Positions 19,997-26,800 of a DNA stretch of 64,000 nucleotides are shown in pieces. The translations under genes were made by a program, and so were the position numbers. Position 1 is the first letter of the stretch, and each line of letters begins with the position of its first letter. Source of the stretch: Chrysomallon squamiferum (lineage: Eukaryota > Animalia > Mollusca). The stretch is from NCBI GenBank assembly GCA_012295275.1, contig CM022665.1, positions 34,658,001 to 34,722,000 of the forward strand, written 5' to 3'. The notes beneath the pieces are model-generated. The model saw only the letters and a program-made list of their open reading frames with translations, made no database searches and was not told where the DNA came from.

Positions 19997-20857
19997 ATGG
20001 CGGATAGGAAGGAAAGCTGCCTACGTGACAAAAGCAATGTATGCCATTTATGTGGAGCCTTTGAGAATTTATCGTTGTGTGGCGGGTGTAGGAAGACGTG
20101 GTACTGTTGTAAACAGCATCAGAAGGACGACTGGAAAGAACACAAGAAACTATGTTCTTTCAAGCGGAACAAGAAGGATTATAACATGCCAAAGAGCCAT
20201 GATGATGGGTCAACCAAAACCCCGATTAAGATTGGCGACGAAAGTCATTCGACTGATTCCGATGAATGCGCGTGCAGTGAGACTTCTCACGTAGACATCA
20301 CCCACAATGCAGACGACAGGCCGAGGTCTTCGACCCAACGATCGAGTAAAAAATTAGTTAATACCAGAAAAGACAGTCCAGAACTCGATGACGGTTTGGT
20401 AGAATCTACAGCCTCAGCGTTGAATTTGGACCAAACTTATTCAGAATTCACAATGAGCCCGATGCCAGCACAAACATTAACTTCAGACACCTGGCAGTCC
20501 TCCAGTGCTTATATTAAAATATTACAGTCCAGATTTAAAGAACTCTCCGCTTATGTTGTGAAATGCCTTACAAAATACGGAGTATGTGTTATTGACAATT
20601 TTCTAGGTGATTCGAAAGGAATGGAAATTTTAAATGAAATTAAAACACTTCAGACCACTGGTCTGTTTCGTAAAGGACAGGTTGCTGTAAACCTTGACAG
20701 ACCAGGTATCACACATGTCAGAGGTGATCTAATAACATGGGTTGATGGATCAGAAGAAGGATGCAGTAACATACATTTCTTGATTTCGTGTATGGATGCT
20801 GTGATGATAAAATGTCAGGATCAGTTGGAACATTATAAAATTGCAGAAAGAACCAAG
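19997..20857 (+). CDS. EGLN1: EGLN1 exon 1 (287 codons, MYND finger to ...IAERTK)
   Basis: Strong start context agaATGg; similarity to PHD2 ends at RTK, followed by the non-canonical donor GAAAGTAT. Confidence 0.9.
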
Positions 20858-23800: not shown

Positions 23801-26800
23801 GATATACATAGCATTAATTTACTGACAGAACATCATGACGTTTTATTTATTTATTTATTGTATTAAAGTTTGAATGTTTTCATAGCAGACATTAACTACA
23901 TTATAAAGGAATGTGGAGATTTATTATATATTTTTGTGCATTACAGGCTATGGTTGCATGCTATCCAGGAAAGAAAACAGGTTATTTGCGTCACATTGAT
24001 AATCCTAATGAAGATGGACGCTGTGTTACTTGTATCTACTACCTCAACAAAAATTGGGATATTTCTGTAAGTTATCCCGTTTTATAAATTTTTATTATCA
24101 TGTAAATGTTTGTAAATTCACAAATATATTTTAAAGATATTACTTACAAATTTATTTTGCGTATCTCATAGATTAAGTGAAAACATTTATATCATTTAAT
24201 TTTCTTTTTTACTTTAATTTTAAAGGCAGTTGAAAAATAGATTAAAAAATATTTTTATCTGTGTTGTAAACTTGTATTCATTTATTTTTATCATTACTTC
24301 CTGTTTATACAAAAGCAAAACCTCAGATATTATGATTGAATGTACAAAATGCATATCTAATGTCTTGAACGTGTATGTATTTAATGGCTAGGTGTTTCAA
24401 TTTGAATTAGTTCTTTGTTTTTGCAGTCTTAAGTCAGTTTTGTTGGTTCAGTGGCCATCTTATAAAAGAAAATTACATATTAACTTTCATTAAAAAAAAA
24501 AAAAAAATGATAAATTAAAACTGGATTTTTTTTTCTTTCTGACTTCATTTCAATCGTTTTAAATTTTAACAGCAGGAATTGTTTTTACAATACGGCAAAA
24601 AAAAAAAATTATAATAAAAATAAATAAATAAAATACTACTAATAATAATTAAAAAATATATATATATCATCTAAAACCCTAAAATAAAATGGAAATATGA
24701 ATTTAATATTATGCATGTTTCTCTGATTTCAAAATATTTTAATTTATTTATATAATTGAGAATATGTATCTGCAAACACACACACACACACACATATATT
24801 TTAAAGATACAAAATGAATTTTAATTTATGGGTAAGTTAACATTTCATTCACTATAGTGAAGAAAAATATTAGTTAAAATACATTTTGAATTAACATAAA
24901 TGTTACTGAATATTAAACAAGTACCATAGAAAATTTTCAGTAGCTAATTCTGTTTATCTAATGAATAAATGATTTCATAGTTTATATCACTATATATGTG
25001 GGTGTGTAAAATACACACACATGAAACATAATCATAAAGATAAGTTATAAAAAGGAACTGATAATTCAGTTACAAAATGTGCATTAGTGTCCTTCCATTC
25101 GCCTTTTAAGAAAAAGAGCCAAAAGAATGCAATATTATATAATTAATATTCAGTACTGACAGGTAAATTACTTGTAGGCAAAAAACATTAAAGTGTATTT
25201 GAACAGTGTTAAGAAAATTATAATTTAATAAATGATAAATGTTTATTACAACTCACTTAACCTTTAGACATAATTAATTTAGATGTTTTTTTTTTAAGTA
25301 TTTTTAAATATTCACATGTAAAAGAAGAGTATTGCTGTAATATATTCTTTGGTATTTTAGTTCAGTTAATGTTCTTAAAAATGTACAGAAACAATGGTAA
25401 ATATGTGTTAAATTCTGAGCATTTGTAACCAACACTCTCAGTGTTTTTGTCCATTTATTCCTGTAATCTTTGTTGGAAGCTAAACATAATTCATTCTCTG
25501 ATCATTTGTTTTCCATTCTTGCAGAAAGATCTATTTTATTAGTAATGAGCTTTTAAAAATTCTCTCTTAGTTCCTGAAAATGATTCCAATCTGCTACTGT
25601 TGTTTTCAAGTGAAAATCCAAATAAAAAACCACCTATACAACTCAAAATTCCCAGATCCCAAAAGAAGCCAATTTTAGAATGATTGACACTATTTTCATT
25701 TGTATATTATTTCCTGCTAGTGATATATGCAATTTGTGATTGCACAGTAGTTGTTGTTGCTTTAAGTAGCTGAACAACTGATGTGTGTATAGATAAATAG
25801 ATAAAATGTAATCTTTTCCATTTTATCTTATCATATATTTAATTTAAATAACATATTTTAATTATAATCTATAAAAGTATTAGAAAACCTGTCTGAAACA
25901 AAATGTATAAATATTGCTATGTATGTGATAAAGTTTAAATTTTTGACTTTATACTAAAAGTTTTTAATGCAGTTTACTTCTATAGGAAAATAAAATAAAT
26001 TCTGTAAAATTATTTTAAATTATATAAAAATATTGACATGGTTAGAAACACACTATATACTACTATTTCAACTTTAACATGAATTGGACAACTACTGTAT
26101 GTTATTAAGTTGCAAAATTAGTAAATGTGTTGCAGTGATTGTCAGGTATATCTGAATTTGAAACTTTCCACAATTTTTAAGAAATTGATAACATGATACC
26201 AATTTCCTGAATATTTTTATTTTTGTTAATTTAACAAGTTTAGTTATTATTCATTTAGTCAATGTGAAAATGTTCACTGGGATCTAAACATATGTGGAGC
26301 GGCATGATACTGAGCCAAAAAATGAGGACAAAGTCGTTAAAAATAAAAAGTGCTTAAAAAGATTTAAAAACTAGTTGAGATATTAGATAAAACTTGTTTT
26401 CAACTAATACTGAAGCAGAAGTTGTCATTTTCTTGTTCACTTGACTAGTGAGGGTGTGAAATCAGGCAAATACTGTTGATGATGTAAGTTACACATCATT
26501 TTAATCCAGTAATACAATGAATAAATTGATTTAATGAGATTTATACTGATGTAATTGGTGTGTTGTGATATCTCATTTCAATTAAAATTGAGAGAATAAA
26601 AAAAAATTCTAATATGATGTGGTAGTATGGCAATAAAGTTGTGGACACCGGAATTTACAACATATGCAGAGTTCAACTTTTTTTTGAGAAAGCAAAAATA
26701 ACAAATGGCTTTTTCTTTTCCCATGTCAGTGTTTGATTCTGAATCAGAAAGAGATGCAATGAAAAACTAATAGTATGCTTTTCAAATAACTAGGTTTCGC

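Follow-up and report, generated by a model that had tools for sequence, protein, structure and literature searches.

Intron 1 of a snail EGLN1/PHD2 gene carries GA-AG ends and is spliced in RNA

The first intron of the EGLN1/PHD2 gene found in the window—the whole stretch of 64,000 nucleotides that was analysed—has GA-AG ends in the DNA and is spliced out in RNA, so that the unusual splice proposed in the initial annotation is real. This intron has most probably (roughly 0.72) been removed by the U2-type spliceosome since a recent T-to-A change that strong U1 pairing makes tolerable, with mostly normal enzyme being produced, perhaps at the price of slower splicing. EGLN1 intron 1 represents a read-supported and obligatory GA-AG intron at an ancient position, at which nearly all orthologues read GT.

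The EGLN1/PHD2 gene and the donor of its first intron

The gene consists of five exons (Table 1) and its CDS covers 417 aa. The closest named homologue, with an aligned identity of 81%, is the EGLN1 from Gigantopelta aegis (415 aa), a peltospirid snail from hydrothermal vents (PMC7736800), which makes a peltospirid host likely; over the aligned stretches, exons 2-4 exhibit 72-91% identity to the G. aegis EGLN1. Both the N-terminal MYND finger and the 2OG-Fe(II) domain with HxD...H that define the EGLN1/PHD2 family are present, and the protein is predicted, by its family membership, to hydroxylate HIF-alpha.

Table 1 Features of the EGLN1/PHD2 gene and of the junction region of its first intron (window positions)
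Feature	Positions	Strand	Details
EGLN1/PHD2 exon 1, coding part	19997..20857	+	MYND finger aa 16-53, linker, N-terminal catalytic part aa 183-287; ends ...RTK
Purine-rich exon end	20843..20857	+	purines 12/15
Intron 1	20858..23946	+	3089 nt, phase 0, GA-AG; RNA joint in X4 and X9
Non-canonical 5' splice site AAG/GAAAGTAT	20858..20865	+	U1 consensus matches 9/11; 8/9 outside +1/+2
Read-through tail if intron 1 is kept	20858..20938	+	26 residues, then stop; 81 nt
Exon 2	23947..24066	+	AMVACYPG...RHIDNPN...; bears HxD iron ligands
Exon 3	30416..30552	+	intron 2 is GT-AG
Exon 4	32638..32702	+	RYAVTVWY…; intron 3 is GT-AG
Exon 5, coding part up to stop	33162..33232	+	intron 4 is 32703-33161, GT-AG, by eye

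The crystallised catalytic domain of PHD2 aligns with the exon-1 product over residues 183-289 of the latter, and the Pfam 2OG-Fe(II) core begins at residue 287 in the G. aegis EGLN1. Intron 1 therefore interrupts the catalytic domain just ahead of the iron-binding core, and does not lie between the MYND and catalytic exons as had been thought initially; for the same reason, the product of reading through the intron is not "MYND-only", since it contains the N-terminal catalytic part. The unspliced frame itself was described correctly: the ATG at 19997 opens a read-through ORF of 313 aa with its stop at 20938, and the GA-AG splice is needed for the complete enzyme.

Concerning the junction, exon 1 ends with AAG (20855-20857), the intron starts with GAAAGTAT, and the acceptor ...TTACAG is followed by exon 2 opening with GCTATG. 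A junction scan, in which any donor dinucleotide was allowed and the joined translation was scored against five homologues, placed the GA donor at the top with 656, the best GT/GC alternative reaching 500; this alternative is an upstream GC at 20843, which would remove five residues. As the initial annotation had noted, the closest downstream GT (20862, positions +5/+6) does not keep the frame, and 20 residues would be inserted if the next GT in frame (20918) were used. The former would hit a stop after 18 codons.

The flanks of the GA donor match the general U1 consensus, from which the U1 of the host may itself differ, at eight of nine positions outside +1/+2, the mean for the 21 other donors of the window being 4.9 and the maximum 7. 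The near-perfect context claimed earlier is thus borne out, and that it accompanies GA is as expected if such a context is a condition for tolerance. The duplex energy of the site (-7.8, within a range from -2.6 to -10.6) is strong without being the strongest. The 5' sites of U12-type introns follow the consensus RTATCCTT, and a minor intron was rejected on the basis of this donor. With GA at +1/+2, an AG acceptor, removal in RNA and high U1 complementarity outside +2, the intron has the properties of the sporadic U2-type GA-AG introns.

As for the neighbourhood of the gene, EPRS (glutamyl-prolyl tRNA synthetase; 4700-17150, minus strand) and EGLN1 are arranged head to head, with some 2.8 kb between the latter and the first matched EPRS exon; 19 EPRS exons were mapped and EPRS extends further toward the window start. 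Two alike broken frames (…SIELKH.II…GVHVVDLARQ…), found at 2242-2703 and 58254-58548, presumably resemble remnants of a transposase helix-turn-helix. An Rfam search of the window gave no match.

Read support for the donor base and for the splice

Nine read runs from three studies contain the stretch, and four of them were mapped over 19700-30100: X4 and X9, both RNA runs of one study, and the non-RNA runs X1 and X8, the latter from a separate study. It should be noted that X1 may be the source of the window DNA and that the study of X4 and X9 also comprises possible source runs. A joint 20855>23945, whose ends can slide by three letters, is present in both RNA runs and in neither of the two non-RNA runs; its shorter side measures 27 and 30 letters, the bridging threshold being 31 letters. 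This freedom permits four equivalent placements—AG..AC, GG..CA, GA..AG and AA..GG—all of which yield the in-frame message RTK/AMV. Since GA..AG is the sole spliceosome-like placement among them, the removal of intron 1 is assigned to the GA-AG ends. Further downstream, an X4 contig runs from the end of exon 2 (24066) straight on into exon-3 letters.

The A at 20859, singled out earlier as a base to be verified, stands: no alternative letter is listed there in the four runs, the contigs being of a kind that loses rare variants and rare splice forms. Neither the X1 contig (19700-22252) nor the X4 contig (20829-22252) differs from the window at any position, and the latter, coming from an RNA library, led to the rejection of RNA editing at +2. 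The X8 contig exhibits seven differences, six of which are listed, none of those falling within 20858-20865. Three X8 differences cluster in the read-through tail at 20901-20904 and would change two residues, none being listed in the 861-nt coding exon 1.

The possibility that transcripts use another donor was also followed up, and none was seen in the RNA contigs of exon 1 and of the first 1.4 kb of intron 1. Exon 1 is covered by RNA contigs at 19793-20858 (X4) and 19776-20855 (X9), the segment 19700-19775 being free of RNA contigs. Since the X4 contigs extend without interruption over 19793-20858 and 20829-22252, there is no branch at 20843, 20862 or 20918, and these three donors were rejected on both their lower scan scores and the unbroken contigs. 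The X4 exon-1 contig itself begins, ahead of 19793, with 30 GC-rich letters off the stretch that may be an adapter, a chimera or an upstream piece.

RNA-library contigs also span the two unspliced boundaries of intron 1 and much of the intron, unspliced intron-1 contigs being present in both X4 and X9. Some of the RNA is therefore retained or slow to be spliced, the contigs giving no measure of the size of this pool. The mean contig depth in intron 1, intron 2 and exon 1 is 37.4, 9.5 and 477 for X4, and 8.3, 1.7 and 49.8 for X9, values that cannot rank the parts of the gene; they were taken from bins with an X8 depth of at most 110 (four of the eight intron-1 bins and seven of the 17 intron-2 bins), the others having been dropped as repeat-rich. 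At the boundaries, the ratio of unspliced to total contig depth is 0.10-0.14, which is not a measure of retention. The contig depths hint that the RNA is mostly spliced and that intron 1 lingers longer than intron 2; a 5' gradient of nascent RNA or DNA in the libraries could yield an equal pattern.

Conservation of the donor among orthologues

Gene calls made on raw contigs run through the donor, so that the donor can be told from the residue following RTK, Val indicating GT and Glu or Asp indicating GA; GT in the orthologues was accordingly deduced mostly from the Val codon and not from DNA. Sharing of the GA donor by relatives, raised initially as a check, was not found. A relative distinct from G. 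aegis, P0003, which is 82% identical overall, reads RTK/VNGL and hence has a GT donor. Val follows RTK in all ten read-through proteins among 20 homologue matches, as well as in three of three further gastropod-like read-throughs. Among 150 homologue representatives (50% identity), there are 88 with Val, 46 spliced forms, two without the motif and 14 with another letter, eight of these last having been looked up. The full GTAAGTAT is possible in only seven of the 88 Val-reading orthologues and impossible in P0003.

Glu or Asp after RTK occurs in three of the 150 representatives, all of them annotated vertebrate gene models. In a gene model the next residue need not be intronic, and the three, carrying no information on their donors, were rejected as independent GA donors. 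One such protein, P0096, the EGLN1 model from the highland fish Triplophysa tibetana, has E following RTK and is without the core, which probably reflects a mis-predicted exon.

A metagenome scan yielded nine EGLN loci: two with the intron, both GT in DNA, five running straight into exon 2 and two ending short of the junction. The five (L002 and L004-L007), in which RTK leads directly into exon-2 sequence, may be transcript-derived contigs or cases of intron loss.

Judged from these sequences, the GA donor is lineage-specific with regard to P0003 and the read-through orthologues, the DNA of G. aegis being outside the comparison; the position of intron 1 is ancient and GA at its donor likely recent. 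GA is not a conserved device, given that a close relative and practically all orthologues lack it.

Origin of the GA donor and comparison with known GA-AG introns

The reading we prefer starts from a GT donor whose +2 position changed, likely recently, from T to A; the near-perfect pairing with U1 snRNA elsewhere in the site would allow this change to be tolerated. The ordinary U2-type (major) spliceosome likely removes the intron, as the U1-type donor suggests, and SR proteins may assist by binding at the purine-rich end of exon 1; the latter is possibly a candidate exonic enhancer, by analogy with the need of GA donors for enhancers described in PMC6280755. Most transcripts would then give the normal 417-aa enzyme. 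Transcripts keeping the intron would likely undergo nonsense-mediated decay, because their stop precedes the next junction by 3.1 kb, and would hardly serve as a source of a useful short protein. HIF would be affected, if at all, through a small constitutive fall in the output of PHD2 and not through a regulated switch. It counts against a purely neutral account that the change struck an oxygen sensor in a snail with a vent dweller as its nearest named relative, which such an account has to treat as a coincidence. EGLN1 intron 1 would be a clean natural example of a tolerated change to a "dead" donor. The snail EGLN1 would come out truncated or wrongly joined from gene predictors that accept no donor but GT or GC, and might then be reported as lost or broken.

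The initial annotation went further and saw in the donor a possible rate-limiting switch. In that sense, GA could be a selected throttle, with intron 1 removed slowly or depending on oxygen, so that active PHD2 falls and HIF rises or is tuned in a low-oxygen habitat. The splice is indeed obligatory for the HxD...H core, both RNA runs contain unspliced intron-1 contigs, and A at 20859 looks fixed or common, being present in runs from three studies with no T listed. According to PMC6280755, GA donors rely on enhancers and TIA1 sites can move the cut to +5, which would provide a handle for regulation, and the nearest named relative is a vent snail (PMC7736800). GA is, however, conserved neither in the 82%-identical P0003 nor in other orthologues, neither the +5 nor any other donor was seen in the RNA contigs, and the X8 variation at three sites within the 81-nt tail, being a single cluster, speaks weakly in the same direction. 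The literature searches found no paper on such regulation. A switch is thus not supported so far and we regard it as unlikely; retention that proved to be high, or to vary with oxygen, would amount to a new way of tuning the HIF pathway. A narrower form of the idea, still a little more doubtful, is that a vent-snail lineage fixed the change from GT to GA adaptively, in that a share of the PHD2 pre-mRNA is detained by a donor that is weak and needs enhancers, which lowers or tunes PHD2, and hence HIF, at low oxygen. Changes in EGLN1 occur in high-altitude vertebrates, and the adaptive reading, if true, would add a splice-site counterpart to them.

Generally relaxed recognition of donors, with intron 1 as one of many GA donors, is very improbable. 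The model here would be Eurytemora affinis and Oikopleura dioica, where GA/GG donors account for 3-12% of introns genome-wide and belong to newly gained introns (PMC5714493, PMC7072748). The snail site shares with them the AG/GAA form, typical of the Eurytemora GA donors in these sources, as well as being needed for the full-length protein. The intron, in contrast, is ancient, and the GA donor is one of 22 in the window: all 21 other donors checked (18 from EPRS and three from EGLN1) are GT, without a single GA or GG. Without any donor being assumed, GT took the highest score at 17 of the 18 EPRS junctions; the remaining one lies in a poorly conserved linker and its top score is non-GT, yet a GT donor is present. 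The probability of finding none among 21 is 0.07-0.11 at a rate of 10-12% and 0.5 at 3.2%, which argues against a Eurytemora-like rate of 10-12% but not against a mild excess of about 3%.

Even less credible is the view that GA works only through a nearby canonical GT, in the manner of FGFR1-3, the GT in question being that at +5/+6. The FGFR1-3 donor is likewise U2-like GA-AG, and PMC4176328 describes it as relying on a GT close by; it is conserved across vertebrates, used alternatively and requires a GT 6 nt upstream (PMC4176328, PMC7072748). The EGLN1 donor is, by comparison, neither conserved nor alternative and has no GT at -6, the nearest upstream one being at 20824; moreover, the usual U1 consensus itself includes a GT at +5/+6, and none of the listed joints starts from 20862. 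An assembly error or a rare allele, with T as the true base at 20859, is the least credible of all and largely refuted by the difference-free X4 RNA-library contig and by X8 from a separate study with other differences of its own, even if the possible shared source of the runs and the one unlisted X8 difference of seven are taken into account.

Returning to the preferred reading of a tolerated donor change, the EGLN1 GA-AG intron adds to a rare known class, and a modest cost in splicing could matter in this particular gene. There are 12 annotated GA-AG introns among about 60,000 in Drosophila (PMC4528330) and, as cited in PMC5714493, 14 of 222,263 in human, with ITPR1 as an example (PMC4176328). 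Like these sporadic U2-type introns, some of which are without a canonical alternative, that of the snail combines a rare GA donor with an AG acceptor in what is probably an otherwise GT-AG genome. EGLN1/Hph is missing from the 12 fly rows (PMC4528330 File S4), and the human survey (PMC4176328) has no mention of "EGLN" in its main text; the literature searches turned up no description of a GA donor for EGLN1 or for peltospirid snails, the supplements of PMC7072748 and PMC4176328 being places that might list one.

An identical intronic 8-mer has been used in human reporters: splicing of CAG GAAAGTAT was accurate at +1 when the exon carried an SRSF7 enhancer, and almost no splicing took place in the absence of enhancers (PMC6280755, Erkelenz et al. 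2018). That reporter, an artificial human minigene, differs in having C at -3, and its shift to +5 upon the addition of TIA1 sites is not seen in EGLN1. The match to a site already tried in reporters makes the snail donor easy to test.

The closest known case is intron 12 of SYMRK from Trema orientalis, a lineage-limited GA donor that is approximately 95% spliced and functional (PMC10668435). In both, a single obligatory GA donor is found in an important gene of one lineage; they differ in that the relatives have GC in the case of SYMRK and GT in the case of EGLN1, and in that efficiency and function were measured for the former, whereas it is the presence of the splice that was established for the latter.
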